Below are positions 4,685 to 33,257 of a DNA stretch of 40,532 bases, piece by piece (the first letter of the stretch is position 1; each line of letters begins with the position of its first letter). Under the pieces are notes generated by a model. That model worked only from the letters and a program-made list of their open reading frames with translations, was not told the origin of the DNA and did no database searches. The translations under genes and the position numbers were made by a program. The stretch is taken from the IMG/VR virus record IMGVR_UViG_3300010370_000005, one strand, 5' to 3'. The DNA is from a virus.

Positions 4685-7600
4685 TTACATTCCCTTCTGG
4701 ATACAAACAGCGGCGGCTTGAGCTGCTTTGTGCATTGTCACCGCGTCTGCTTGTTGTTGGTCCAGTGTCTTCAATTCATTTTCCAAAGTTGTTTTTAAAG
4801 CAGTGCTTAGCTCAGGATCCATGTTGGCAAGTTCAGCTTCTAAGTTTGCTTGTAAAGACTCTAACTCGGAATCAACAAGTTTTAAATCATTTTCAATTGC
4901 TTTCATGGTATCAGCAACTGCATCCTTAGGTTCACCTAGCATAGGCGTAGGATCAGCGGCACTGCTTGGCTGTGCCTGGTAAGCTTTTGCCATCTTAAGT
5001 TTCTGTGCATCACTTGCTTCAAACGGCAAAGCACGCACGTTGTCAGGCAAGACCTCAATAACAACCATAGGATCGCCAAACTCGTGACTTGGTTTATAGA
5101 CTTCTTTAATCCTATATTTCATGCCGCGATTGATAAGCAGTTCTGTCTCTGAGTGAGAAGAAATAGCGCCAGCCATCGTAGCCTTAGTTCCTTCAGGAAC
5201 TAGGATCTTTGTCATTGGTGACTTGCCCTTGTAACTGCCGTGAAACTTCTTGGCCGTTTCAACGTTAAATGACGTACTAGTAAACCCATGCATCGTGATG
5301 AACTTACCTTCAAGCGCCTTTAGCATGTTGTAAGCCTTGTCACCATCGATCGTTTGATCCCAAACAAATTGGTTTGCCCCGGGCAAATCTTTAAGCAGGT
5401 CATTAAACGTGGTGTAGCGAACATTGCCTCGCCATACCTCATACTTCTCGGTTGTCTCAGGAATCTTTTTAAATATCGAGTCCAGCAGCGCGACTCTCTT
5501 ATCCATGTTGGCGTCAATGGGTTTACCAAGGACTTCTTTGCCCCACAAATACTGGTTGAGCGAAACGTAATCTGAGTTTGTGTACCCCTTTAACGCAGAC
5601 ATTTCGCTTGGTGTAAGCGTGGTTTGAAGCTTATCGTAAAACTTATCTAAGAATTTCTTAGCATCGTTGTAATTAAAAAATTTAACCGTGCCTTGCTCTT
5701 TAGCAACTTCCTTGGCAACATTATCAAAAGTCTTTTCAAGGTCTAGACGACGAAAACCTAGAGTTTCCTTTAAGCTTGCGCCTAACTGGGGATCCATACC
5801 GTGCAGCACCGCCGTATCAACAAGCTTGTTGACTTCTTCTTGCGGTATTTTTAGAATCCTAGCCACGGCTTCTTCCGTGTCTTTAAGACTGATCTCTCCA
5901 AAGACATCAGGATTCTTTTGCAACAGGGTTTTGTATTCACCAACGGTTGGTTTAAACTCCGCGCCTTTAGGAGCACCTTGCGCTCTAAACAACAAAGCAC
6001 CACCTGGGTCAATACGCCAAACAACGCCTTTGCCTTCAATCAACTGCATGTTGTAGTTAGGAGCATTGCCGACAACATCCCAGTTTGCCAAGTAGGCGTC
6101 AATGATCATGTTCTTAGCAAAAGCCTCGCGCTGTTCTTTTGGCAGTTGCTTAAACTCAGCAGGAGAAATTGTTTTCATGCCCTTGATGTAATCACTGGCA
6201 ACCCCAACAACCTTATCGCCGTCTTGCACAATTGTTGTTTTGGGCATTGCAACACCGTACCAGCGATACAGTGTAGCAGCAACCCACTCATTCAAGGATT
6301 GGTTTGCTTCTTGATACTTGACGTAGTAAGGACTGTTGTCGTTCTTGTCTAAGTGGAGACCGCCCTTATTTGTACCTTCTTGCTTACCAACTTGTTCAAG
6401 GTTACCTACGTCAAACGCGGTGTCATAGCCAGCAAATGAGTTGTACACATCGCCATAGGTTTGCAAGTACGCGTCAGGATCAAACAAGACAGACTCAACA
6501 GCTTGCTTGCCTTTAGGATTTAGATCATTAAAGACTTCTTTTGTAGGGTCTTGTACAAAAAGACTTTGCATGGAATCTTCAGGACCAAAGACGACGTCGT
6601 GTTGGTTTTGCTTTGGATCAAAAACAGCGTTCTTGACTTCCATCACGTGAGTCAAGTTGTTTTTAGCAAGCTGATACGAACCCTTGTAGGAAATGTCTAG
6701 TGAACCCTCCTCAACAGAGACGCCATGGATGGCTAACAAGTCTTTAAGGTCTGACGACACCTTGCTCATGTCAATCGTGCCTTTTTCAGCAAAGGCTTTT
6801 GACGTCAACAACCCAATTGGCGAATCACGATTTGCTTTGACAGCCATAACTTGACCGTCTTTTGTGCGCACGTAAAATGCCACGTTGTTTTGCAACCCGT
6901 TCTTTGTAGCCATCGTTACGGCTTCGGCGAAGTCAGGGTCTTGCATGGCTTTAGCAACTTGCGCTGCGGTAACCTTAGCTGCCTTAGGACCTGTGGCTTG
7001 CTCCATCAAGCTAAGACTTGTCTCGACATCTTGATAAGGCTTGTAGTGCTTGATTGGGTTTGATGCCTGCAACTCAGAATCAAACTTTGTAGCAGAGGCT
7101 GTCAAGTATGGATCGTAGACTTGCTCACCAGGTTTTAGTGGATCAAGAGTAACTGCTCCAGCAACCGGGGCCTCAGCATCAGGGTTGACTGCGTAAACTT
7201 TATTAGAGGCTCCAACAGTAGCAATCTGACTTATTTCAACGTCTTTGCCGTTGCCTAACTGCTTGATTGAAGTTTCAAGAGCTGCTGCATGGCTGCGTTG
7301 ACGAAGACCCTTGTAGCCGTCGTAAAACTTACCACCAACAGCAAATAGACCACCGCCTGCAACAGTGCCAAAAGCAATGTTGGTCAGTGAGTCCATCATG
7401 TCGTAGTCTGCTTTTTCTTGTATCTTTGCAGAATAGATAAGCGGTTCAACACCAAGAGATCCCACAAAGCCAGCTTCAGCGCCTCGCATAAAACGACTGG
7501 CAGTAACGCCTAACTTCGCGTATCTAGCCTCACCAATGATTGGCACAAAGCCAATGGCAAGACCCACAGGATCAAAGATCGCCGTGCCCATAGCCAAACC

Positions 7601-8161
7601 AAAACCAACTGAGTTGTCAACAAAACCTTGTGCACGACCCATCGTACTGGCCAAACGTTGTTCTTCTAGTTTGCGCTTATGCTGAATAGAAGCTACAAGA
7701 CTGCTGACAGGCTTATCCCAGCTAAGGTGTCCTGGAATGCCAAACTTAGTATTTGCCTCATCTGGCTGCAGCATTGTTGGCCGCTCAGTAAGGCCAAATT
7801 CCTCTATTGTTGGACGTCTTTTGTAACCGTCCCGGCCACCTCGAGAATTGTTGTGTCTTTGGTTGTAGAGTTTCTTTAGATCGTCGTCGTTGTAGTTCGT
7901 TAACTCTTCAGCTCGACGAATCTCGTTCATTCGAGAAATAGAGTCAATACCGGTTTCTCTCCAACCAGCAGTGATGGCTGCGTCAGCTACTTGCCCAGTG
8001 GTCGATCGCAAGTCATCAAAGCCAAAACTTTGAAACCACTGCGAAGGAGCATATGGAGTAAAGTTTTGACTGAGATTGCGCGCCTGATCAACAACCTGTT
8101 GGTTAACAGGATCGTTTGCTTGGCGGGCGTTGAGCGTCGTTTTTTTTACTTTTTCAACCAT
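4685..8161 (-). CDS. Internal virion / ejection protein in the T7 gp16 position (1158 aa), carrying a PI3/4-kinase-like region and a C-terminal R-S-ExE ADP-ribosyltransferase domain
   Basis: Position follows the gp14- and gp15-like genes. N-terminal Gly-rich membrane segments are present (VGFGLAMGTAIFDPVGLAIGFVPIIG). ART motifs are LKGYTNSDYVSLNQYL, EVWRG, GFTSTSF and SETELLI. The kinase-like string is IIDAYLANWDVVGNAPNYN...WRIDPGGAL. Confidence 0.8.
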   Translation of the reverse strand: MVEKVKKTTLNARQANDPVNQQVVDQARNLSQNFTPYAPSQWFQSFGFDDLRSTTGQVADAAITAGWRETGIDSISRMNEIRRAEELTNYNDDDLKKLYNQRHNNSRGGRDGYKRRPTIEEFGLTERPTMLQPDEANTKFGIPGHLSWDKPVSSLVASIQHKRKLEEQRLASTMGRAQGFVDNSVGFGLAMGTAIFDPVGLAIGFVPIIGEARYAKLGVTASRFMRGAEAGFVGSLGVEPLIYSAKIQEKADYDMMDSLTNIAFGTVAGGGLFAVGGKFYDGYKGLRQRSHAAALETSIKQLGNGKDVEISQIATVGASNKVYAVNPDAEAPVAGAVTLDPLKPGEQVYDPYLTASATKFDSELQASNPIKHYKPYQDVETSLSLMEQATGPKAAKVTAAQVAKAMQDPDFAEAVTMATKNGLQNNVAFYVRTKDGQVMAVKANRDSPIGLLTSKAFAEKGTIDMSKVSSDLKDLLAIHGVSVEEGSLDISYKGSYQLAKNNLTHVMEVKNAVFDPKQNQHDVVFGPEDSMQSLFVQDPTKEVFNDLNPKGKQAVESVLFDPDAYLQTYGDVYNSFAGYDTAFDVGNLEQVGKQEGTNKGGLHLDKNDNSPYYVKYQEANQSLNEWVAATLYRWYGVAMPKTTIVQDGDKVVGVASDYIKGMKTISPAEFKQLPKEQREAFAKNMIIDAYLANWDVVGNAPNYNMQLIEGKGVVWRIDPGGALLFRAQGAPKGAEFKPTVGEYKTLLQKNPDVFGEISLKDTEEAVARILKIPQEEVNKLVDTAVLHGMDPQLGASLKETLGFRRLDLEKTFDNVAKEVAKEQGTVKFFNYNDAKKFLDKFYDKLQTTLTPSEMSALKGYTNSDYVSLNQYLWGKEVLGKPIDANMDKRVALLDSIFKKIPETTEKYEVWRGNVRYTTFNDLLKDLPGANQFVWDQTIDGDKAYNMLKALEGKFITMHGFTSTSFNVETAKKFHGSYKGKSPMTKILVPEGTKATMAGAISSHSETELLINRGMKYRIKEVYKPSHEFGDPMVVIEVLPDNVRALPFEASDAQKLKMAKAYQAQPSSAADPTPMLGEPKDAVADTMKAIENDLKLVDSELESLQANLEAELANMDPELSTALKTTLENELKTLDQQQADAVTMHKAAQAAAVCIQKGM

Positions 8162-18993: not shown

Positions 18994-19449
18994 CTATCTC
19001 CTTTTCTTAAAAAGGTTACCTACTACTTCGTAACCCAGGAGATGGTACAGCTGTGCCGTTCTCTCTGGGGCCACTTGCGTTGACGTAGCTGGACAAATTT
19101 CCTTTGCACCGCGCTCAAACGCCCAATCTTCAAATGCCTGGATTAGCCTCACGGCTGCCAGACTACCTCGCTTCGTTGGGTCTACAAACAAAGCCAGATC
19201 GACCGCCATCCGGTCGTTACTGAAATAATACTCTGTCAGAAGCCCCGCGTACATGGCAATTATAGTGCCGTCTTTTTCGGCTAGGTGCAAAAAGTATTCG
19301 TCAGGTGTAGCAATCATGTGGCTCACTAGGTGAGCTACCTTTTCGGGGTTATACGTACAGACCTGCGGATAGTGCGACTCGTTGAAGATCCCGGCTGACA
19401 GTTCTAGGACTCGAGGTACGTCGTCGACCGTGGCAGGGCGAATGATCAT
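18994..19449 (-). CDS. GNAT-family N-acetyltransferase (151 aa)
   Basis: The string IRPATVDDVPRVLEL...LFVDPTKRGSLAAVRLIQAFEDWAFERGAKEI...AQLYHLLGYEVVG matches GNAT motifs A and B (acetyl-CoA binding R/KxGxxA). Confidence 0.75.
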   Translation of the reverse strand: MIIRPATVDDVPRVLELSAGIFNESHYPQVCTYNPEKVAHLVSHMIATPDEYFLHLAEKDGTIIAMYAGLLTEYYFSNDRMAVDLALFVDPTKRGSLAAVRLIQAFEDWAFERGAKEICPATSTQVAPERTAQLYHLLGYEVVGNLFKKRR

Positions 19450-24157: not shown

Positions 24158-25132
24158 ATGGCTCACTTAATCGAATCCATGGCATACGCCAACTCAACTC
24201 CCTGGCACGGTCTAGGTAACCAGGTCAGTGATGCATTAACCCCGCAAGAGATGATCCTTGCTGCCGGTCTTGATTGGACCGTCAGTCGCAGATCTATGTT
24301 CACCACCCAGTCAGCTGCTGACTTTCAGGCTTCAGAAGCAACTCTGAAGACCAACGATTGGGGCGTCCTCGTTCGTGATTCAGACAACAAGATCCTAGGT
24401 CCTTGCGGCAAGAATTACGTGCCCATGCAGAACAGCGAAGTTTTTGCCTTCTTCGATCGCTTTGTCAAAGCAGGTCACATGAAGATGGAAACCGCAGGAT
24501 CCTTAGACGGTGGCCGTCAGGTCTGGGGCCTTGCTGCCATCAACAAGGGCTTTGCTTTGCCCGGCGGTGACGAAGTCAACGGATACTTGCTGCTCAATCA
24601 GCCGCACGTCTGGGGTAAGTCCTTGACCATCATGTTTACGCCCATCCGAGTCGTCTGCAACAACACCTTGACGCAAGCTCTCGGACAAGCTGGTGAGCGC
24701 TTTACCATGTCGCACATACGCCAGTTTGACCAGGATGTCATCCAGAAGGCCGAAACAGCCTTAGGTCTTGCTACCCATCAACTTGATGCTTTCAAGGCCA
24801 CTGCGGAGCTCCTAGCAAGAGTGTCGTACCAAGAAAACAAGGTCACTGAGTACATCGCCAAGCTTTTCAATCCAGCTCTTGTTGGCGGCGAAATAACCCG
24901 AGACCAATTTACAAGATCCGCGGACGAAGTCTATAATTGCATTCACACGCAGCCAGGTGCAGACTTGTCCGAAGGTTCATGGTGGTCTGCCTTGAATGCG
25001 GTTACGTTCTACGTTGATCACAAAGCCGGTCGCAACCGCGATGCTGCCTTGAATTCGGCGTGGTTTGGCCCGCGAGCCGCTCTCAAGCGGAAGGCCTTAG
25101 ACCTGGCAGTCGAGTACGCGCAAGCTGCCTAA
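24158..25132 (+). CDS. DUF932 / phage-plasmid-like protein (TIGR03299-type, 324 aa)
   Basis: The N-terminus MAHLIESMAYANSTPWHGLGNQV...TPQEMILAAGLDWTVSRR matches the characteristic start of DUF932 proteins, as I recall the family. The SD is gaaaggag. Confidence 0.7.
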   Translation: MAHLIESMAYANSTPWHGLGNQVSDALTPQEMILAAGLDWTVSRRSMFTTQSAADFQASEATLKTNDWGVLVRDSDNKILGPCGKNYVPMQNSEVFAFFDRFVKAGHMKMETAGSLDGGRQVWGLAAINKGFALPGGDEVNGYLLLNQPHVWGKSLTIMFTPIRVVCNNTLTQALGQAGERFTMSHIRQFDQDVIQKAETALGLATHQLDAFKATAELLARVSYQENKVTEYIAKLFNPALVGGEITRDQFTRSADEVYNCIHTQPGADLSEGSWWSALNAVTFYVDHKAGRNRDAALNSAWFGPRAALKRKALDLAVEYAQAA

Positions 25133-25438: not shown

Positions 25439-26278
25439 ATGGCAAATGAAAGAGGAAAAGCAATCGATAAGACATTCCTGTCTGTCGACAACGCTGAGGA
25501 ACGCGGGTTCTTGCACCGTGATTACATCGCCCATTGTCTTCGCTGGACGCACGTCGTCAAGTGGCTGCATCAAGGCGGTCGTTACAAAACGGCTCGGATC
25601 CTAGACGTTGGTTGCGGTAAAGAGATGCCGTTGGCCAAGCTCATGCACTCGTCTCGTCTTGGTCCCCAGTTCTACGCAGCTGCCGACGTCAGCAAATTGT
25701 CAATGCCAGACCAGTTTGCCAAGTCAACTTGGAAACCCAGTCAGTTGCTAGGCGAGTGTGATGCAGCCGTTTTGAAGCCAGAGCAAATAGAGCAGACGCC
25801 AAATACGATCGTCTGTTTTGAAGTTGCCGAACACATTGAACCAGAGCACTGCCGTCGTTTACTGGCCAACTTTGGCAACTTGCTAGAGCCAGAAGGCACC
25901 TTGTTTATCTCAACGCCTTGTTGGGATCCTGATGTAGGAGCCGCTGCGAACCACGTCAACGAGATGACTTACCTTGCTTTTGGCGCTTTGCTAGAAGACG
26001 TAGGTTGGCGTGTTGAAGGTCATTGGGGCACGTTCGCCTCGATGCGCGATTACAAAGACGAGTTGCCACCAGCACACAAGGAGGTGTTTGATGCAATGCG
26101 AGACTACTACGACAGCAACTACTTGGCAACCATTTTCGCGCCGCTTTATCCATCGCGCAGTCGCAATTGTTTGTGGCAGCTTAAGTGGAACCCAGGCGGT
26201 GGCAGACAATTCCCTGATCTACGTGATGTCGAAGGACGTTGGGGTAGTTCAGAGAAGTGGCGAGAGCTTCTTGCTTAA
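25439..26278 (+). CDS. Class I SAM-dependent methyltransferase, small-molecule type (279 aa)
   Basis: Motif I is ARILDVGCGKE. Post-I/II features are VCFEVAEHIEPE and LLEPEGTLFISTP. I saw no DPPY/NPPY and no PCQ...ENV DNA-methyltransferase motifs. Confidence 0.75.
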   Translation: MANERGKAIDKTFLSVDNAEERGFLHRDYIAHCLRWTHVVKWLHQGGRYKTARILDVGCGKEMPLAKLMHSSRLGPQFYAAADVSKLSMPDQFAKSTWKPSQLLGECDAAVLKPEQIEQTPNTIVCFEVAEHIEPEHCRRLLANFGNLLEPEGTLFISTPCWDPDVGAAANHVNEMTYLAFGALLEDVGWRVEGHWGTFASMRDYKDELPPAHKEVFDAMRDYYDSNYLATIFAPLYPSRSRNCLWQLKWNPGGGRQFPDLRDVEGRWGSSEKWRELLA

Positions 26279-26352
26279 TGTAGGTTGGTTTTTGGTGGCG
26301 ATGATCTCATTGATCATCGTCATTTTATGGATTGAAATTAGAAAGGACAAAC

Positions 26353-26715
26353 ATGTGGAACGACATCAAAGCATTTCACGAGAAATTCGGCCTGCAATAC
26401 GACGGGCCGCCAAGGGACTTGCCCAAAGAGTTGGCAAGCTTTCGGATCGGTTTCATCTTTGAGGAACTCGATGAACTCATTGTCGCCGAAAATAAAACCG
26501 ATCAGCTCGACGCGTTGGTGGACCTCTGCTACGTGGTCATGGGCACTGCTTATCTACAAGGCTTCGACTTCCAAGCCGCGTGGGACCGAGTCCATGCTGC
26601 AAACATGGCGAAAGTCCGTGGTCCGTCAGCGCGCAGTCAAGCTTTCGATGTCATCAAGCCCGAGGGCTGGACTGCTCCAGATCTATCGGACCTAGCAGGA
26701 GAAGGCAATGGCTGA
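26353..26715 (+). CDS. MazG-like all-alpha nucleoside triphosphate pyrophosphohydrolase (120 aa)
   Basis: Start refined to MWNDIKAFHEKFG after the SD aaagga. The string RIGFIFEELDELIVAE...QLDALVDLCYVVMGTA...VHAANMAKV fits the EExxE...DxxD metal-binding pattern of phage MazG/HisE-like proteins. Confidence 0.75.
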   Translation: MWNDIKAFHEKFGLQYDGPPRDLPKELASFRIGFIFEELDELIVAENKTDQLDALVDLCYVVMGTAYLQGFDFQAAWDRVHAANMAKVRGPSARSQAFDVIKPEGWTAPDLSDLAGEGNG

Positions 26716-26875
26716 CTACCTCAAGTTTATCGCTGACACTCAAAAGGAAGCTGAGGAAAAGGCTGCTCAACACATCAAGGGTGAGGATCCCATGAGGTCT
26801 CCAGCAATCTACTCGTCTCAGCCCACTGAAAACGGCAAGTGGCTCGTTGTCGTTAAAGTGTGGGGACTTGACTGA
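26708..26875 (+). CDS. Small coupled ORF (55 aa; below the ORF-track cut-off)
   Basis: Its ATG at 26708 overlaps the MazG stop by 8 nt, and its TGA overlaps the next ATG (TGATG). It translates as MADYLKFIADTQKEAEEKAAQHIKGEDPMRSPAIYSSQPTENGKWLVVVKVWGLD. Confidence 0.5.
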   Translation: MADYLKFIADTQKEAEEKAAQHIKGEDPMRSPAIYSSQPTENGKWLVVVKVWGLD

Positions 26876-27876
26876 TGATCTTTATTCTTGAAGGACCTGA
26901 TGGTGTAGGTAAGACTACACTTGCTCAACACATGGCCAAGAAGCTCGGTGCAGTCTATTTGCATTTGAGTTATCGCTGGCCTGATCACATGTTTGAGTAT
27001 CACACAGCAGCCATTCGTTGGGCCATTCGCAAAAGCCGCAAGCAACCTGTCATCATTGATAGGTGGTGGCCAAGTGAAGCCTTGTATGCTGCTGAATATC
27101 GTGGTGGTAGTAAGTGGGCGCACATGGGTCGCATGATGGATCGTGTTGCTCGCAAACATGGTGCAGTCTACGTCTACTGTTTGCCTGAAGACCTTGTCGA
27201 GTACGAAAAACGCTTTGACAAGCTAAAGACAGAACGCGAAGAGATGTACGACAACGTGATGGGTGTTGCTAAACGTTACTTGCACTTGTGGCATGGTGAC
27301 AAGTCGCATGTACCAAACGAGAACTACACTGACTTGCTGCTAAGGACAGGTGGTGTGCACACGCGCGCAGATCACATCAAGTACTCGATTGAAACTTGGG
27401 GTGACAAGCTTGATTTGTTCACAGATTACGCAGTCAATCGTGCAAGTCACTTGTTGTCTTCGCAATTGCCTGACAGTATTGATGAACCTAATTTCCTTGG
27501 TCACATCTCTTCAGCGCAATATCTTATGGTTGGCGAGCGCGTCAATCCTAAGTACAACAACTTGTTTTGGCCTTGGTATGACTATGGTCACTCAAGTCTT
27601 TTCTTAGCTCAAGCGCTGCATCAAGTACCTGCACGCGAAGAACTATTTGTGTGGGCTAACTCAATCAACTTTGATGGCACAAAGAACGACATGATTGAGA
27701 AAGCTTATGGATTTAAACCAACGTTGAAAGTCGTAGCACTTGGCAAGACTGCTTTGACGCACATTACTAAGGCAGGTATTCCAGTGCACGAGCACGTGAA
27801 GCATCCTGCTTTTGTGAGACGCTTTGAAGGTGACGTTGATTACCTGAGAGGAGTATTAAGACATGCTATCCACTAA
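26875..27876 (+). CDS. Fusion protein: N-terminal thymidylate-kinase-like dNMP kinase plus C-terminal uracil-DNA-glycosylase-superfamily (family-4-like) domain (333 aa)
   Basis: Kinase part: IFILEGPDGVGKTT (P-loop) and VIIDRWWPSEALYAAEYRGG (the Tmk DRY/SxxAY region). C-terminal part: YLMVGERVNP (compare LMIVGEGPG), PWYDYGHSSLFLAQAL, VPAREELFVWANSI (compare IPREEVYITNIV), KVVALGKTA and KHPAFVRR (compare FHPAYLLR). Confidence 0.7.
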   Translation: MIFILEGPDGVGKTTLAQHMAKKLGAVYLHLSYRWPDHMFEYHTAAIRWAIRKSRKQPVIIDRWWPSEALYAAEYRGGSKWAHMGRMMDRVARKHGAVYVYCLPEDLVEYEKRFDKLKTEREEMYDNVMGVAKRYLHLWHGDKSHVPNENYTDLLLRTGGVHTRADHIKYSIETWGDKLDLFTDYAVNRASHLLSSQLPDSIDEPNFLGHISSAQYLMVGERVNPKYNNLFWPWYDYGHSSLFLAQALHQVPAREELFVWANSINFDGTKNDMIEKAYGFKPTLKVVALGKTALTHITKAGIPVHEHVKHPAFVRRFEGDVDYLRGVLRHAIH

Positions 27877-28615
27877 TACGCAATGGATTAAAGCACTTGA
27901 GAATGTGCTTGAAACAGGAAAAGTCTCTGCACCACGAGGCATGCCAATCAAAGAGCTCATGGCATACCAAACGTGCACTCCAATGGAGTGGCCTGTTGTA
28001 ACTGTAAAAGAACGAGAGCTTGGCTACAAGTTCATGGCTGCTGAAGCTGCGTGGATCTTGAGTGGCGACAATCGCGTGAGAAGCATTCGTCCATACAGTA
28101 AAGCGATCAGCAACTTCAGTGATGATGGTCATTTCTTTCATGGTGCTTACGGGCCCATGATTCGCGATCAATTGCATTTTGTGATTGATGCTTTGAATGC
28201 TGACAAAGATACAAGGCAAGCGGTCATGACCATTTGGCGTCCAAACCCAAGGCCTAGTAAAGACATCCCATGCACAGTGAGCGTGCAGTTCTTGATTCGT
28301 GATGGGTTGCTGCACGTTGTTGACACCATGCGCAGCAGTGACTTGTGGCTTGGTTGGCCTTACGACATCTTCAACTTCAGCATGCTAGCTCGCTACGTGA
28401 TTTGTCATTTGAAGCAGAAGCCAGAACTTGGAGTCATCGTGCTGCAAGCAGGCAGTGCTCACTTGTATGAACAGAACTGGTTGCCAGCTCAAGCAATCGT
28501 TGGTGGCAAATGCACAGTTGAAGAAACACCCACCATACCTTGGTTTGAGAATGGCGATGATTTAATTGATTGGTTATGGGAGCAAGCTAATGGCAACGGT
28601 ATTCAAAAGACCTGA
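27863..28615 (+). CDS. Thymidylate-synthase-fold pyrimidine-nucleotide C5 transferase, dCMP hydroxymethylase-like (Asp at the uracil/cytosine-discriminating position; 250 aa)
   Basis: IPCTVSVQFLIRDGLLHVVDTMRSSDLWLGWPYD aligns to E. coli ThyA [33 protein letters not shown]. The catalytic Cys, the RS.D motif and the HLY motif are conserved, and Asn177 is replaced by Asp, as in T4 gp42. The SD is gagaggag. Confidence 0.75.
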   Translation: MLSTNTQWIKALENVLETGKVSAPRGMPIKELMAYQTCTPMEWPVVTVKERELGYKFMAAEAAWILSGDNRVRSIRPYSKAISNFSDDGHFFHGAYGPMIRDQLHFVIDALNADKDTRQAVMTIWRPNPRPSKDIPCTVSVQFLIRDGLLHVVDTMRSSDLWLGWPYDIFNFSMLARYVICHLKQKPELGVIVLQAGSAHLYEQNWLPAQAIVGGKCTVEETPTIPWFENGDDLIDWLWEQANGNGIQKT

Positions 28616-29198
28616 TCAAGATGCGTACTTTCTGGCTATGGCAACTCTTGTGTCACTGCGCGCGACGTGTCGCAGACGCCGCGTCGGTTGTGTACTTGTG
28701 GACAGTAATCGTCATGTGCTCGCTACTGGCTATAACGGCGTTGCTCGTGGGCGCGATCACTGCCTTGACCATCCATGTGCTGGCGCTGATTTTAGACCGG
28801 GCCTGGGGTTGGATCAATGCGAAGCGATCCATGCAGAACAGAACGCGATGCTTCAATGCAGAGACACGCAAGCCATCGAGACCGCGTACATTACGGTGAG
28901 TCCATGCATTACATGCGTGAAACTACTAATGAATACCGGCTGCAAACGAATCGTGTTCATAGAACCCTATGCACACAGTCAAGCAGCAGACCTATGGAAA
29001 GGCGAATGGAAACACTATGGAACAGTTGAGCATGTTTATGCCGAACTCAGGTTGGCGTCCGCCAAAGGAGTTCCCGAATTTGACGAACGTCAAGAGGATC
29101 TCTTTGGACTGCGAAACCAGGGATCCACATTTAATAGACCGGGGTCCGGGCGGAGTGAGGTACGACGGGAACGTAGTGGGAGTGAGTCTTGCGACTGA
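28590..29198 (+). CDS. dCMP deaminase (zinc-dependent CDA fold) with a roughly 60-aa C-terminal extension
   Basis: Start refined to MATVFKRPDQDAYFLAMA. The zinc motifs HAEQNA and PCITCVKLL are present. The ORF tail runs 182 nt into the PolA gene in another frame. Confidence 0.8.
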   Translation: MATVFKRPDQDAYFLAMATLVSLRATCRRRRVGCVLVDSNRHVLATGYNGVARGRDHCLDHPCAGADFRPGLGLDQCEAIHAEQNAMLQCRDTQAIETAYITVSPCITCVKLLMNTGCKRIVFIEPYAHSQAADLWKGEWKHYGTVEHVYAELRLASAKGVPEFDERQEDLFGLRNQGSTFNRPGSGRSEVRRERSGSESCD

Positions 29199-30891
29199 AG
29201 ACCAAGCTTGGTATTTTCCTTTTGCGCATGGGGGTGGCGATAACCTTGATAAGAATCAGGTGCTATCTTTCTTGGCTGATGTACTGGCACAACAGACGGA
29301 GAAAATAGGTGCGAATCTCATATACGACCTTGAATGGTTACGTGCAGAAGGCATTCAAGTCAATGGTCCCATACGCGACATCCAAATCGCGGAGCCGCTT
29401 ATTGACGAGAACCAGTCCAGCTACAGCCTCTCGGCGCTTGCTAAGAAGTACCTTGGCGAAGACAAAGATGAAACCCTACTTAGGCAAGCAGCTGTATCTG
29501 CTGGAGTCGACCCAAAAGGTGGACTTTGGAAACTTGCAGCCAGGTACGTTGGTCCCTATGCCGAAGCAGATGCTGCACTCCCTCTCAAGATTTACGACTT
29601 ACAGAAAGAGATCCTAATCAAGGAAGACTTGTGGGACATCTTTACTCTTGAGTCTGATCTTGTCAACATCATGCTTGACATGCGATTCAAGGGCGTGCGC
29701 GTCGACGTCGATAAAGCCGAGGAGCTAAACGACCAAGGCTTAAAAGACGAAGCCAGATTACTCGGCGAACTAAGAGATCTCGTTGGTTACGTGATTGACC
29801 CATGGTCAGGTGACGATCTTGGCAGAGCCTTTAAGAAGTTAAACGTCTGGTACCCTGAGACTGCAAAGGGTAATGCCTCCTTCACTGGCGACTGGTTGGC
29901 TAATCACGAATTGCCAATGCCAAGGAAGGTTGCTGAGTATCGTAAACTAAATAAGATGCGGCGTGACTTTGTTGAAGGCATGGTGTTGAACATGCAGCAC
30001 AGTGGTCGCATTCACTGCCAGTTCCATGCGCTGCGTAAAGACGAGTCAGGAACTAGATCAGGTCGCTTCAGCAGCTCAATGCCTAACTTGCAGCAAGTAC
30101 CTGCTCGTGACGAACATTGGGGTCCATTGATTCGCGGTTTGTTCTTGCCAGACGAAGGCATGCACTGGGCTAGTTGTGATTACAGCCAGCAAGAACCTCG
30201 TATCCTTGTCCACTACGCAGACATCCTTGGTTTGAAAGGCAGCGAAGAAGCAGTCAGAACTTATTCTGAATCTGCTGATACTGACTTCCATCAAATGGTT
30301 GCTGACATGGCTGGCATCAAGCGTAAGCAAGCTAAGACCGTGAACCTTGGTATGTTTTACGGCATGGGTATTTACAAGCTCAGTCAAGAACTAGGTCTTA
30401 GTCAGGCTGAAGCAAAGCCGTTGTTTGAACAGTATCACGACCGGGTTCCATTTGTCAGGCAGCTCAGTCAACGTTGCACGCAGTCAGCAACGCAGAAGGG
30501 ATGGATCAAGACCTTGCTCGGTCGCAAGCGTCACTTCGATCTTTGGGAACCAGCAGACAGCCAGAACACTTGGCCTAATCGCGAAAACCCATTGACCATG
30601 GAACAGGCGAAGAAGGTTTGGCCTGATCGTCCATTGAGAAGGTCGATGACGCATAAAGCTTTGAATGCTTTGATTCAAGGTGGGGCGGCCGACATGACAA
30701 AGAAAGCGATGGTTGACCTGTATAAAGCAGGAGAAATCGCACACATCCAAGTGCACGACGAACTTTGTTTTAGTGTAAGTGATCGGGCACATGGCCAACG
30801 CATTCAGACAATTATGGAAGAGTGTGTTAAAATAGCAGTACCAATCAAGGTCGACTTAGAGATGGGTCCGACCTGGGGCGATAGCAAATAA
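29017..30891 (+). CDS. Family A DNA polymerase with a 3'-5' exonuclease domain (624 aa)
   Basis: Exo I is ISLDCETRD. Motif A is ASCDYSQQEPRIL, motif B is RKQAKTVNLGMFYGMG and motif C is IQVHDELCF. Start taken at MEQLSMF; other in-frame ATGs lie at 28969, 29032 and 29038. Confidence 0.9.
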   Translation: MEQLSMFMPNSGWRPPKEFPNLTNVKRISLDCETRDPHLIDRGPGGVRYDGNVVGVSLATEDQAWYFPFAHGGGDNLDKNQVLSFLADVLAQQTEKIGANLIYDLEWLRAEGIQVNGPIRDIQIAEPLIDENQSSYSLSALAKKYLGEDKDETLLRQAAVSAGVDPKGGLWKLAARYVGPYAEADAALPLKIYDLQKEILIKEDLWDIFTLESDLVNIMLDMRFKGVRVDVDKAEELNDQGLKDEARLLGELRDLVGYVIDPWSGDDLGRAFKKLNVWYPETAKGNASFTGDWLANHELPMPRKVAEYRKLNKMRRDFVEGMVLNMQHSGRIHCQFHALRKDESGTRSGRFSSSMPNLQQVPARDEHWGPLIRGLFLPDEGMHWASCDYSQQEPRILVHYADILGLKGSEEAVRTYSESADTDFHQMVADMAGIKRKQAKTVNLGMFYGMGIYKLSQELGLSQAEAKPLFEQYHDRVPFVRQLSQRCTQSATQKGWIKTLLGRKRHFDLWEPADSQNTWPNRENPLTMEQAKKVWPDRPLRRSMTHKALNALIQGGAADMTKKAMVDLYKAGEIAHIQVHDELCFSVSDRAHGQRIQTIMEECVKIAVPIKVDLEMGPTWGDSK

Positions 30892-30902
30892 AGGAGAATG
30901 AT

Positions 30903-31274
30903 ATGTGGCTATTTACTAGAAAAGGTTTGTTGAGTATCGTTGAGCACAGGTCTGATAAGGACTTGCTGATTGTTCGTGCTCGTCAAATGCAGCATCTGAC
31001 TGACAACTTCCCGAAGTCTATTCCAGCGTATACACCTGACGCGGACTACCGGTACAGGATCACTGTGCCACGTGCGTGGGTTATGTCTGAGGTCAGCCGT
31101 CTAGTACGGGAGATTGATTACCCGAACTTTAAAGACGCAGCTAATCCAGAATTCAAGCAAGTGTATTCAGAGATATGGGCAACAGGGTTAAAACTTGAAG
31201 GACTGAGATATGAAAGAGTCTACCCTGTGGACTTTGATTCGGGACAAAGTTCCCGGCCACTTGATCCGTATTGA
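30903..31274 (+). CDS. Hypothetical protein (123 aa)
   Basis: SD aaaggag; no motif recognised. Confidence 0.55.
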   Translation: MWLFTRKGLLSIVEHRSDKDLLIVRARQMQHLTDNFPKSIPAYTPDADYRYRITVPRAWVMSEVSRLVREIDYPNFKDAANPEFKQVYSEIWATGLKLEGLRYERVYPVDFDSGQSSRPLDPY

Positions 31275-31661: not shown

Positions 31662-31985
31662 ATGATGACTGTATTCGTGGTGCAAGAGCCACGCGGAATT
31701 AACCTAATGCCGGCTGAACAGTATGGCGAGCTTAAGGTGCTGTTGCCTCCAGGCAACGTGGCTTACAGTGCTGCGCCCACAGTGGCTAGGTTAAAGCGAG
31801 GACTTGCGAGATTTACTGACAACGATTACCTACTCATGGTTGGCGATCCTGCCGCTATCGCAGTAGCAGGCGCCGTAGCAACGATGCTGAACAATGGACG
31901 CATGAAAGTGCTGAAGTGGGATCGTCAAGAGATGCGGTATTACGTGGTTGAATTTGATCTAATGAGGAGAAGCGATGACTACTGA
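31662..31985 (+). CDS. Hypothetical protein (107 aa)
   Basis: SD aaaggag immediately before ATGATG; no motif recognised. Confidence 0.55.
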   Translation: MMTVFVVQEPRGINLMPAEQYGELKVLLPPGNVAYSAAPTVARLKRGLARFTDNDYLLMVGDPAAIAVAGAVATMLNNGRMKVLKWDRQEMRYYVVEFDLMRRSDDY

Positions 31986-32502
31986 TGTCACACCAGGCGA
32001 CGACAGCCTGAAAGTCGTAGCTGAATTAGCAGCTAAGCAAGTGCAGCTTGAGAAAGAGATAGAGGATTTAGAAGCGCAGTTGAAAGAGAAGACAGAAGCC
32101 TTGTCCCAAGTACAGGAAAAGGATTTACCTGAAGCCATGACTGAGTGCGGCATCAGTGAGTTCAAGCTTGTCGATGGCAGCAAGATTACTGTCAAGCCTT
32201 TCTACCAAGCTAATCCTCCTAAGGAAAAGTACGAAGAAGCCATGCAATGGTTACGCGACAATGGTCATGGAGACTTGATCAAGAACGACGTGACAGTTAG
32301 CTTTGGCAAAGGTGAAGATGCAAATGCCGTGGACTTCAAGACCTTCTTGAAAGACAATGGTACTTCATACACCGACAAGACAGGAGTCCATGCTATGACG
32401 TTCAAAGCGTTTGTGCGTGAACAAGTGGAATCAGGTAGGAACTTGCCCTTCGACCTGTTAGGTATTTACATTGGGCAGAAAGCAACCATCAAGAAAGGAT
32501 AA
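31975..32502 (+). CDS. Hypothetical coiled-coil protein of the recombination/replication module (175 aa)
   Basis: SD aggaga. The N-terminal heptad-rich segment is AELAAKQVQLEKEIEDLEAQLKEKTEAL. The position upstream of the SSB-like gene recalls Gp157-like proteins, but this is weak. Confidence 0.45.
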   Translation: MTTDVTPGDDSLKVVAELAAKQVQLEKEIEDLEAQLKEKTEALSQVQEKDLPEAMTECGISEFKLVDGSKITVKPFYQANPPKEKYEEAMQWLRDNGHGDLIKNDVTVSFGKGEDANAVDFKTFLKDNGTSYTDKTGVHAMTFKAFVREQVESGRNLPFDLLGIYIGQKATIKKG

Positions 32503-32507
32503 CTTAA

Positions 32508-33257
32508 ATGGCAAAGAACGAAGTAGCTGAGAAGAAGCAGGGTGGCGCCCTGGCCGTGATCGATTTTGCAGCAGACGCTGGCATGGGTATGGAGGGAATG
32601 ACTAGCCAAGATATGGCTATTCCTTTCTTCAACATCTTGCAAAAGCTTTCGCCGCAACTAGACACGCTTACAAACGCGAAGGCCGGTATGATCTTCAACA
32701 CCGTGACTGAGGAAGTTTTTAAAGACATCACAGTCATTCCATGCGCTTACAAACGCGAGTTTGTTGAATGGAAACCACGTGAACAAGGTGGCGGTTTGGT
32801 TGGTCAACATGCCATCACGTCTGCTGCTGTAACAGAAGCAAAGAACGTCAATGGTAAGTTAACCACTGCGTCTGGCAACATCCTCGTTGAAACCGCGTAT
32901 CACTTTGTTTTGCGTGTTGAGTTAGATACGGGTCTCATGGAACCTGGTTTGATCACCATGAGCAGCACGCAGCTGAAGAAGAATCGTCGTTGGAATAGCT
33001 TGATGAACAACTTGAAGGTTCAAGGTCCATCAGGTCCTGTTACTCCTGCACGCTTCAGTCACATGTACAAGCTTGGTTCTGTTGCAGAACAGAACGACAA
33101 AGGTGCTTGGTCAGGTTGGACTATCGACATGGTAGGTCCTGTCTCTGAACCAGGTCTTTACCAAGCGGCTCGTGACTTTGCGCAGCAAGTAATGTCAGGT
33201 GCTGTGAAGACAGCAGCTCCTGAAGCTGAGCACACAGGCGAACACAACGCGTTTTAA
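32508..33257 (+). CDS. Possible ssDNA-binding / annealing protein (249 aa)
   Basis: Sits in the replication module. A conserved-looking core is AIPFFNILQKLSP...GMIFNTVT...VIPCAYKREFVEWKPRE. The mildly acidic C-terminus ends in Phe (PEAEHTGEHNAF), reminiscent of SSB tails. The function is an inference. Confidence 0.35.
   Translation: MAKNEVAEKKQGGALAVIDFAADAGMGMEGMTSQDMAIPFFNILQKLSPQLDTLTNAKAGMIFNTVTEEVFKDITVIPCAYKREFVEWKPREQGGGLVGQHAITSAAVTEAKNVNGKLTTASGNILVETAYHFVLRVELDTGLMEPGLITMSSTQLKKNRRWNSLMNNLKVQGPSGPVTPARFSHMYKLGSVAEQNDKGAWSGWTIDMVGPVSEPGLYQAARDFAQQVMSGAVKTAAPEAEHTGEHNAF

Follow-up and report, generated by a model that had tools for sequence, protein, structure and literature searches.

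The DNA analyzed here, referred to as the window, is a stretch of 40,532 nucleotides (IMG/VR virus record IMGVR_UViG_3300010370_000005) from a podovirus-like phage genome of approximately 40.5 kb that carries genes for a T7 gp14-like internal protein, a nozzle, a portal and a capsid. An operon of overlapping, co-directional genes in this window consists, in order, of a methyltransferase gene, a MazG/PRA-PH pyrophosphatase gene, a 55-aa open reading frame (ORF), a gene for a kinase fused to a uracil-DNA glycosylase (UDG) fold, a gene for a protein with the thymidylate synthase (TS) fold, a dCMP deaminase gene, and the gene for a family A DNA polymerase (PolA). The TS-fold gene is the subject of this analysis. 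Given its active-site residues and genomic context, it probably encodes a folate-dependent 5-hydroxymethyl-dCMP (5hm-dCMP) synthase that acts in a pre-replicative cytosine-replacement pathway similar to that of phage T4.

The TS-fold gene begins with an ATG 8 nt 3' of the sequence GAGAGGAG, and its start overlaps the upstream gene for the 333-aa kinase-UDG protein by 14 nt. An earlier note on this DNA, made from the sequence alone, had placed a TS-fold enzyme at exactly the coordinates of this ORF (27863–28615). The 250-aa product matches the Pfam family Thymidylat_synt (PF00303) with 72 bits (E 5.9e-20; gathering cut-off 24.3), and its AlphaFold2 (AF2) model, computed from an alignment of 62 homologues, has a pLDDT of 94.1 and a pTM of 0.92. 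The top match in a sequence search of the PDB is the CMP 5-hydroxymethylase MilA (E 1.4e-21, 80 bits), with ordinary ThyA proteins at 1e-14 or weaker. A Foldseek search with the AF2 model also ranks MilA chains best (TMq 0.82–0.86, top E 1.8e-20), followed by ThyAs, and the TMq over the MilA and ThyA structures ranges from 0.71 to 0.86. The T4 dCMP hydroxymethylase (gp42) is absent from the top 50–60 PDB matches in both sequence and fold searches, where MilA and ThyAs rank above it. The comparison with gp42 is therefore based on a direct alignment of the window enzyme with the protein encoded in the T4 genome. A T4-type gp42 is found at rank 19 when the window enzyme is searched against BFVD. 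The database label of the protein is 'thymidylate synthase' (JGI), and its scores against the NCBIfam thymidylate synthase equivalogs are 60.7 bits at best, compared with a cut-off of 174.55 (TIGR03283), and 23–57 bits for the others, compared with cut-offs of 108–427.

Identical copies of the TS-fold protein occur on 40–45 kb contigs from several metagenomes, and a library of 1.84 billion proteins contains 647 cluster representatives related to it at E <= 1e-30. A megablast search of positions 26000–31000 against 50,697 phage records gave no match, so that none of these records represents a cultured phage closely related in its DNA.

The active site was examined in L-INS-i alignments of the window enzyme with E. 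coli ThyA (whose numbering was checked), T4 gp42, SPO1 gp29 and a fragment of MilA. The alignment recovers the published T4 numbering of C148, S169, D179, R123, H216 and Y218, which indicates that its register is sound. The earlier note had quoted a string of 33 residues and argued that its final Asp falls on ThyA Asn177, the uracil-reading residue, and corresponds to T4 Asp179. The string lies at residues 136–168 (28268–28366), and the alignment does place Asp168 on ThyA N177 and T4 D179. HMMER alignments to solved ThyA chains agree, as Asp168 sits on the Asn of 'LGVPFNI'. The gp42 string that the note gave is essentially right, the actual sequence being CTNTVQYLIRDKKINAVVNMRSND. The note's preference for gp42 over ThyA in the local match, however, has only a slight margin in raw identity: the string is identical to T4 gp42 at 15/33 positions, to MilA at 16/33, to ThyA at 13/33 and to SPO1 gp29 at 11/33. 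The discriminating power comes from which residues match and not from how many.

The window enzyme retains the catalytic set R25, E61, Y96, C137, R157, S158, D160, H200 and Y202. The residues typical of the superfamily (the catalytic Cys, the phosphate-binding Arg, Glu58, Tyr94, His207 and Tyr209) align with C137, R25, R118, R157, E61, Y96, H200 and Y202, all invariant or nearly so across relatives. Ser158 and Arg118 form a deoxyribose-type pair, equivalent to T4 S169 and R123' (criterion from PMC5175136). The position of ThyA W80 is occupied by Ile or falls in a gap. In 271 relatives collected by two independent database searches, the combination D/T/D/D at ThyA positions 143/147/169/177 is present in 266; of the other five, four deviate at a single position and the fifth has a gap. 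Asp is found at position 177 in 270 of them, the remaining one being gapped in that column, and 270 also have Asp at position 169. Within the clade itself (81 sequences, namely 80 IMG/VR loci and the window), D134, C137, M156, S158, D160 and D168 are kept in every sequence, Thr138 is replaced by Ser in one, and all share the motif (K/R/N)D(I/V)PC(T/S). Position 143 was assigned in the 80 loci by counting from the catalytic Cys. Since Asp is present in 270 relatives and in all 80 IMG/VR loci, Asp168 is no chance substitution. Practically all of the roughly 350 relatives covered carry the signature.

Published work connects a few of these positions with substrate and product. N177D switches the substrate of TS-fold enzymes from dUMP to dCMP, and positions 177 and 147 best separate cytosine-modified from unmodified phage contigs (PMC8670742). 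Hydroxymethyl instead of methyl products go with L143D/E, and D169N identifies the 5-hydroxy-dCMP synthases, which depend on flavin (PMC13326640). At positions 143/147/165/177 the window enzyme has D/T/M/D, as do T4 gp42, a dCMP hydroxymethylase, and MilA, a CMP hydroxymethylase. The corresponding residues are L/H/Q/N in E. coli ThyA, D/N/N/N in the dUMP hydroxymethylase SPO1 gp29, and D/N/I/N in Montesquieu gp51, which is encoded beside the gene for an aGPT-pyrophosphorylase (thymine pyrophosphorylase). PaMx74 gp52, which we used as a stand-in for XP12 as the methylase type, comes from a phage reported to have 5-methylcytosine (5mC) fully replacing cytosine; it has N/P/L/D, keeps W80, and is encoded near a dihydrofolate reductase (DHFR) gene. 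DoCa6 gp56 is 72.5% identical to PaMx74 gp52 and has the same residues, including W80. Position 169 is Asp in the window enzyme, T4 gp42, MilA, ThyA, SPO1 gp29, Montesquieu gp51 and PaMx74 gp52.

Judged by its active-site residues, the window enzyme belongs to the cytosine-hydroxymethylase class. The earlier note had favored a dCMP hydroxymethylase or an XP12-type methylase over a thymidylate synthase, a choice that is borne out, and the acidic Asp134 together with Thr138 and Met156, as in T4 gp42 and MilA, leads us to prefer a hydroxymethylase over a methylase.

Table 1. Genes of the operon and active-site residues of the TS-fold enzyme, with positions in the window.
Feature	Position	Strand	Basis or equivalent residues
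Class I S-adenosylmethionine (SAM) methyltransferase, Hen1/UbiG-like, 279 aa	25439..26278	+	Pfam Methyltransf_23 1.8e-12
MazG/PRA-PH all-alpha NTP pyrophosphatase, predicted dCTPase and/or dUTPase	26353..26715	+	Pfam PRA-PH 2.7e-13
Thymidylate-kinase-like dNMP kinase with family-4/UdgX-like UDG fold, 333 aa	26875..27876	+	PHROG 761, AF2/Foldseek
TS-fold enzyme, predicted 5hm-dCMP synthase (dCMP hydroxymethylase), 250 aa	27863..28615	+	PF00303, MilA best structure match, active-site signature
Arg118			ThyA R126; T4 gp42 R123
Asp134, position tied to hydroxymethyl not methyl product	28262..28264	+	Alignment, PMC13326640; ThyA L143; T4 gp42 D145
Cys137, catalytic nucleophile	28271..28273	+	Alignment, 271/271 relatives; ThyA C146; T4 gp42 C148
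Thr138			ThyA H147; T4 gp42 T149
Met156			ThyA Q165; T4 gp42 M167
Ser158			ThyA S167; T4 gp42 S169
Asp160			ThyA D169; T4 gp42 D171
Asp168, base-reading residue	28364..28366	+	Alignment, Asp in 270/271 relatives and 81/81 loci; ThyA N177; T4 gp42 D179
dCMP deaminase, 202 aa	28590..29198	+	Pfam dCMP_cyt_deam_1 2.1e-21
Family A DNA polymerase with 3'-5' exonuclease	29176..30891	+	Pfam DNA_pol_A 8.7e-66

The window enzyme and T4 gp42 (EC 2.1.2.8; PDB 1B5E family) share the TS fold, the D/T/M/D/D set formed when position 169 is included, the residue pairs of Table 1, and also His200/His216 and Tyr202/Tyr218. The pathway context is similar as well, as in both phage genomes the enzyme is accompanied by a dNMP kinase, a dCMP deaminase and a pyrophosphatase of dCTPase-like type. 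However, the two enzymes are only 22.6% identical in the multiple alignment, BLASTP matches them over the C-terminal half alone (47 bits, residues 103–206), and gp42 keeps the Trp at the W80 position, has a longer insertion before the Cys, and comes from a different lineage of the superfamily. In addition, no glucosyltransferase was found in the window. MilA (Streptomyces rimofaciens; PDB 5B6D/5JNH) has the same D143/T147/M165/D177 and the highest identity in the active-site string, but its Ala176 and Lys133 favor ribo-CMP, whereas the window enzyme has the deoxy-type Ser and Arg; moreover, MilA is an enzyme of a bacterial antibiotic pathway and not of phage replication. SPO1 gp29 is the closest characterized phage homologue overall, with about 30–31.6% identity and 95.5 bits in a full-length BLASTP match. 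It shares the acidic residue at L143, which is associated with hydroxymethyl chemistry, and a Gln at R127, but differs in having the uracil-type Asn at 177, 147 and 165 and a C-terminal extension of 130 aa. On sequence comparison the window enzyme is thus nearer to SPO1 gp29 and MilA overall, and it is not an orthologue of gp42.

Several other enzyme classes were considered and rejected. A thymidylate synthase (ThyA, EC 2.1.1.45) does not agree with Asp168 in place of the uracil-reading Asn177, or with Asp134, Ile or a gap, and Thr138 in place of Leu143, Trp80 and His147. The flavin-dependent 5-hydroxy-dCMP synthases of the RB69 gp48 type are set aside as D169 is kept (Asp160), and the ribo-CMP specificity of MilA and BcmA as the enzyme has Ser158 and Arg118, not Ala at ThyA S167 or Lys at R126. 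The enzymes of thymidine hypermodification (M6, ViI and Montesquieu type) carry Asn177, and neither aGPT-pyrophosphorylase nor DNA kinase families were found in the window scans. For an SPO1-type dUMP hydroxymethylase position 143 is suitably acidic, however position 177 is Asp and positions 147/165 are T/M, not N/N.

The gene for the MazG-like pyrophosphatase has an alternative TTG start at 26332 and is called as a gene in a metagenome copy (L006), and the nearest solved relative of its product is the MazG-like NTP pyrophosphatase DR2231 (2e-7). The 55-aa ORF lies between this gene and that for the 333-aa protein. The latter matches PHROG 761 'thymidylate kinase' (4.9e-14) and has the P-loop EGPDGVGKTT and a DRW motif. 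In its AF2 model (pLDDT 95.5), Foldseek relates the N-terminal domain to YorR, thymidylate kinases (TMPK) and deoxynucleoside kinases (dNK), and the C-terminal domain to T. maritima UDG and UdgX. We predict that this protein is a 5hm-dCMP kinase. The dCMP deaminase gene starts 26 nt inside the 3' end of the TS-fold gene, and its product resembles S. mutans dCMP deaminase (2hvv, 4.8e-20) and T4 cd (2.4e-12). The GTG start of PolA is that called in metagenome copies; a longer ORF runs from 28969. The window ORFs that were scanned include no DHFR, ThyX or second ThyA, and no glycosyltransferase or carbamoyltransferase was found in the window. Two metagenome contigs with the identical TS protein (L008, 5899–6460; L009, 5502–6063) have no recorded deaminase gene in the 560 bp that precede PolA, where the window and two other copies (L006 and L007) carry one. 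Either an artefact of gene calling or true variation could account for this.

The conservation of the module was scored in the 64 IMG/VR loci that have enough flank, using HMMs built here. The methyltransferase, pyrophosphatase, kinase-UDG fusion and deaminase genes accompany the TS gene in 44 of these; a further five have the full gene set with a plain kinase, and ten have only a short kinase and the TS-fold enzyme. The methyltransferase gene is present and collinear with the module in 51. Across all 80 loci, 75 have a same-strand kinase ORF upstream of the TS gene, 58 have a PRA-PH pyrophosphatase, and in 70 PolA follows downstream. The kinase is fused to the UDG domain in 46 of 63 related loci, the rest having a kinase alone of 156–268 aa. 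Recurrent extra gene families within ~7 kb in the 80 loci are replication genes only. Because synteny shows most of the 80 loci to be related to one another, these counts do not represent independent events. The module is also found in the siphoviruses AXL3 and PW916, whose genomes are otherwise different, and in two Manatee Spring viruses, while pelagiphages have the TS and kinase genes without the methyltransferase gene. The labels given to the homologues in AXL3, PW916 and two pelagiphages, HTVC119P and HTVC200P, are thymidylate synthase or dUMP hydroxymethylase. A T4-like myovirus contig of 140.6 kb (L018; ENA ERZ6863811), assigned by its Gp23, UvsY, UvsW and gp44 homologues, encodes a TS-fold enzyme of the clade and a 319-aa kinase at 6054–7840.

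Other features of the window were noted. A DUF932/TIGR03299 protein (24158–25132, +) and three proteins similar to Pam3 gp32–34 (31662–33257, +) occupy the same positions in 35–45 of the 80 loci. A GNAT acetyltransferase gene (18994–19449, -) lies between the terminase-like and portal genes. The 1158-aa protein of the virion/ejection block (4685–8161, -) contains an ADP-ribosyltransferase exoenzyme domain at residues 835–1022 (PF03496, 1.8e-25), which may be an injected, host-modifying toxin domain.

The five-gene module is shared by Stenotrophomonas phage AXL3, whose TS homologue is 44.5% identical to the window enzyme. Of 37 restriction enzymes tested on AXL3 DNA, 35 failed to cut it and only TasI (AATT) and Tru1I (TTAA) succeeded; all 35 resisted sites contain G/C, and the phage encodes ThyX (PMC7504290). 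Cutting at AT-only sites fits a modified G or C base and not a modified thymine, and with ThyX present the TS-fold enzyme of the module is not needed for dTMP. On modified contigs, TS is found together with PRA-PH and dCMP deaminase (PMC8670742). A second dataset places 70% of the deaminase genes of modified contigs no more than 3 kb from a TS gene, with PRA-PH and DNA_pol_A among the top neighbours (bioRxiv 10.1101/2024.12.05.627091). The 'modified-cytosine' phage contigs of MetaGPA (Yang et al., eLife 2021; 2024 mSCD preprint) resemble the window in the Asp177 Thymidylat_synt gene and its neighbourhood of PRA-PH, dCMP deaminase and DNA_pol_A, which these studies connected with cytosine modification. 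They differ in that the text consulted counts neither the Hen1-like methyltransferase nor the kinase-UDG fusion as a component of the module.

The fold, residues and gene order of the operon suggest the following pathway, the steps of which are drawn from context and by analogy with T4 gp42 and MilA. The MazG-like pyrophosphatase would convert dCTP to dCMP, feeding the TS-fold enzyme and keeping plain cytosine out of the phage DNA. Cys137 would attack C6 of dCMP, and Asp168 would hydrogen-bond cytosine N3 and N4, so selecting dCMP over dUMP and stabilizing the intermediate. The methylene of methylenetetrahydrofolate (CH2-THF) would be transferred to C5. The resulting exocyclic methylene would then be hydrated instead of reduced, since the pocket appears open and acidic, with Asp134 for ThyA Leu143 and no Trp80, and the products would be 5hm-dCMP and tetrahydrofolate, not dihydrofolate. 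The thymidylate-kinase-like enzyme would phosphorylate 5hm-dCMP and a host NDP kinase would then produce 5hm-dCTP, to be incorporated by the phage PolA, which must in that case accept the modified dNTP. The deaminase would divert some dCMP to dUMP for dTMP synthesis by the host. The outcome would be virion DNA in which cytosine is replaced by 5-hydroxymethylcytosine (5hmC) or a derivative, shielding it from restriction enzymes.

Several points weigh against synthesis of 5hm-dCMP. The predicted product depends on correlative residue rules that derive from few characterized enzymes, and overall similarity is higher to a dUMP hydroxymethylase, SPO1 gp29 (95.5 bits), than to T4 gp42 (47 bits). DR2231, the nearest solved relative of the MazG-like enzyme, is presumably a dUTPase and not a dCTPase. 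The modification of AXL3 DNA is known from its resistance to restriction enzymes. Five of seven tested Asp177 TS homologues encoded beside deaminases of the 5mC-selective kind made 5-methyl-dCMP (5mdCMP) (bioRxiv 10.1101/2024.12.05.627091), so that the TS-deaminase neighbourhood is compatible with a methylase. As this neighbourhood does not fix the product, the assignment to a hydroxymethylase relies on the active-site residues and on the lack of a detectable DHFR gene in the window.

The last of these points is relevant to a dCMP methyltransferase of the XP12/PaMx74 type, a 5-methyl-dCMP synthase with which the phage would replace cytosine by 5mC, with the deaminase making dTTP from 5mdCTP. 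Such an enzyme would also have Asp at position 177, genes for an NTP pyrophosphatase and a dCMP deaminase adjoin it in PaMx74, and a route from 5mC to T would be useful in a window where no other TS gene was found. However, PaMx74 gp52 and DoCa6 gp56 have W80/N143/P147/L165 where the window enzyme has I/D/T/M, and identity to PaMx74 gp52 is 26%. PaMx74 also has a DHFR gene, the second gene after thyA, in a group of NTP-PPase, thyA, cd and DHFR genes (L017, 39165–42126). The TS homologue of DoCa6 (Bosavirus; L010, 2551–3977) shares the same residues and Asp177, and the combination may be a sequence marker that distinguishes 5-methyl-dCMP synthases from hydroxymethylases, although it is our own reading of two sequences and not a published rule. 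In addition, the window deaminase is far nearer to canonical dCMP deaminases (2hvv) than to PBCV-1 7fh4 (7.5e-6), which among solved structures comes nearest to the 5mC-selective deaminase (2024 preprint). Overall, we consider a methylase improbable. An enzyme that uses dUMP, either a thymidylate synthase or an SPO1-type dUMP hydroxymethylase supplied by the adjoining deaminase, would agree with the JGI label, with the annotation of the PW916 homologue as a dUMP hydroxymethyltransferase, and with SPO1 gp29 as the best characterized phage homologue in global terms. It is very improbable given the invariant Asp for Asn177, the T/M found where dUMP hydroxymethylases have N147 and N/I165, and scores far below every NCBIfam thymidylate synthase cut-off. 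Nor does it fit the AXL3 DNA, cut at AATT and TTAA and not at the 35 tested G/C-containing sites, or the window itself, where no aGPT-pyrophosphorylase or 5-hmdU DNA kinase gene was found.

A further possibility concerns the end product. The methyltransferase gene that heads the module, also noted as lying two genes before the TS-fold gene, encodes a protein that in a profile search of the PDB comes closest to the RNA 2'-O-methyltransferase domain of bacterial Hen1 (3jwi, 4.8e-6), followed by UbiG (5e-3). Its invariant E128-x-x-E131-H132 aligns with the EVIEH motif of Hen1, which we take to bind metal, and N171-H172-x-x-E175 presumably corresponds to Hen1 DHxFE. The protein lacks the DPPY and PC motifs of DNA methyltransferases. 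It is possible that 5hm-dCMP is an intermediate only and that this methyltransferase modifies the hydroxymethyl group or another position, in the nucleotide or in DNA. Such a role nests within the synthesis of 5hm-dCMP and does not compete with it, and we regard it as unlikely but with an appreciable chance of being correct. It is consistent with the collinearity of the gene in related loci and in the otherwise different AXL3 and PW916, with its restriction to five phage records of the collection, all of which carry the module, with the O-methyltransferases as closest solved relatives, and with the precedent of a 5hmC carbamoyltransferase encoded beside such TS homologues. However, the co-occurrence could reflect the shared ancestry of the syntenic loci, the ten loci and the pelagiphages noted above do without the methyltransferase, a literature search for a methoxymethylcytosine modification in phage found nothing, and the enzyme could equally act on RNA or protein. 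A more specific version is rather doubtful: the five-gene module would make an undescribed cytosine derivative, for example 5-methoxymethylcytosine, through a Hen1-like, probably metal-dependent O-methyltransferase acting on the 5-hydroxymethyl or another nucleotide hydroxyl, the UDG-fold domain would help to recognize the modified base, and the derivative would be the G/C-directed modification of AXL3.

The Asp177 signature, the idea behind it and the gene neighbourhood are already published, and the principle itself is well known from earlier work (T4; Yang et al. 2021; Lee et al. 2026). The main value of the present analysis therefore lies in re-annotation: thousands of metagenomic proteins of this clade are labelled 'thymidylate synthase', but their active sites predict 5hm-dCMP synthesis instead. 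Any part that the conserved Hen1-like methyltransferase and the fusion of kinase and UDG fold take in such a pathway is putative; AXL3 and PW916, which carry the module, are cultured isolates. If the prediction is true, abundant phages of freshwater, marine and soil environments would carry fully substituted cytosines, with consequences for bias in sequencing and library preparation, for restriction and CRISPR sensitivity, and for host-range engineering.

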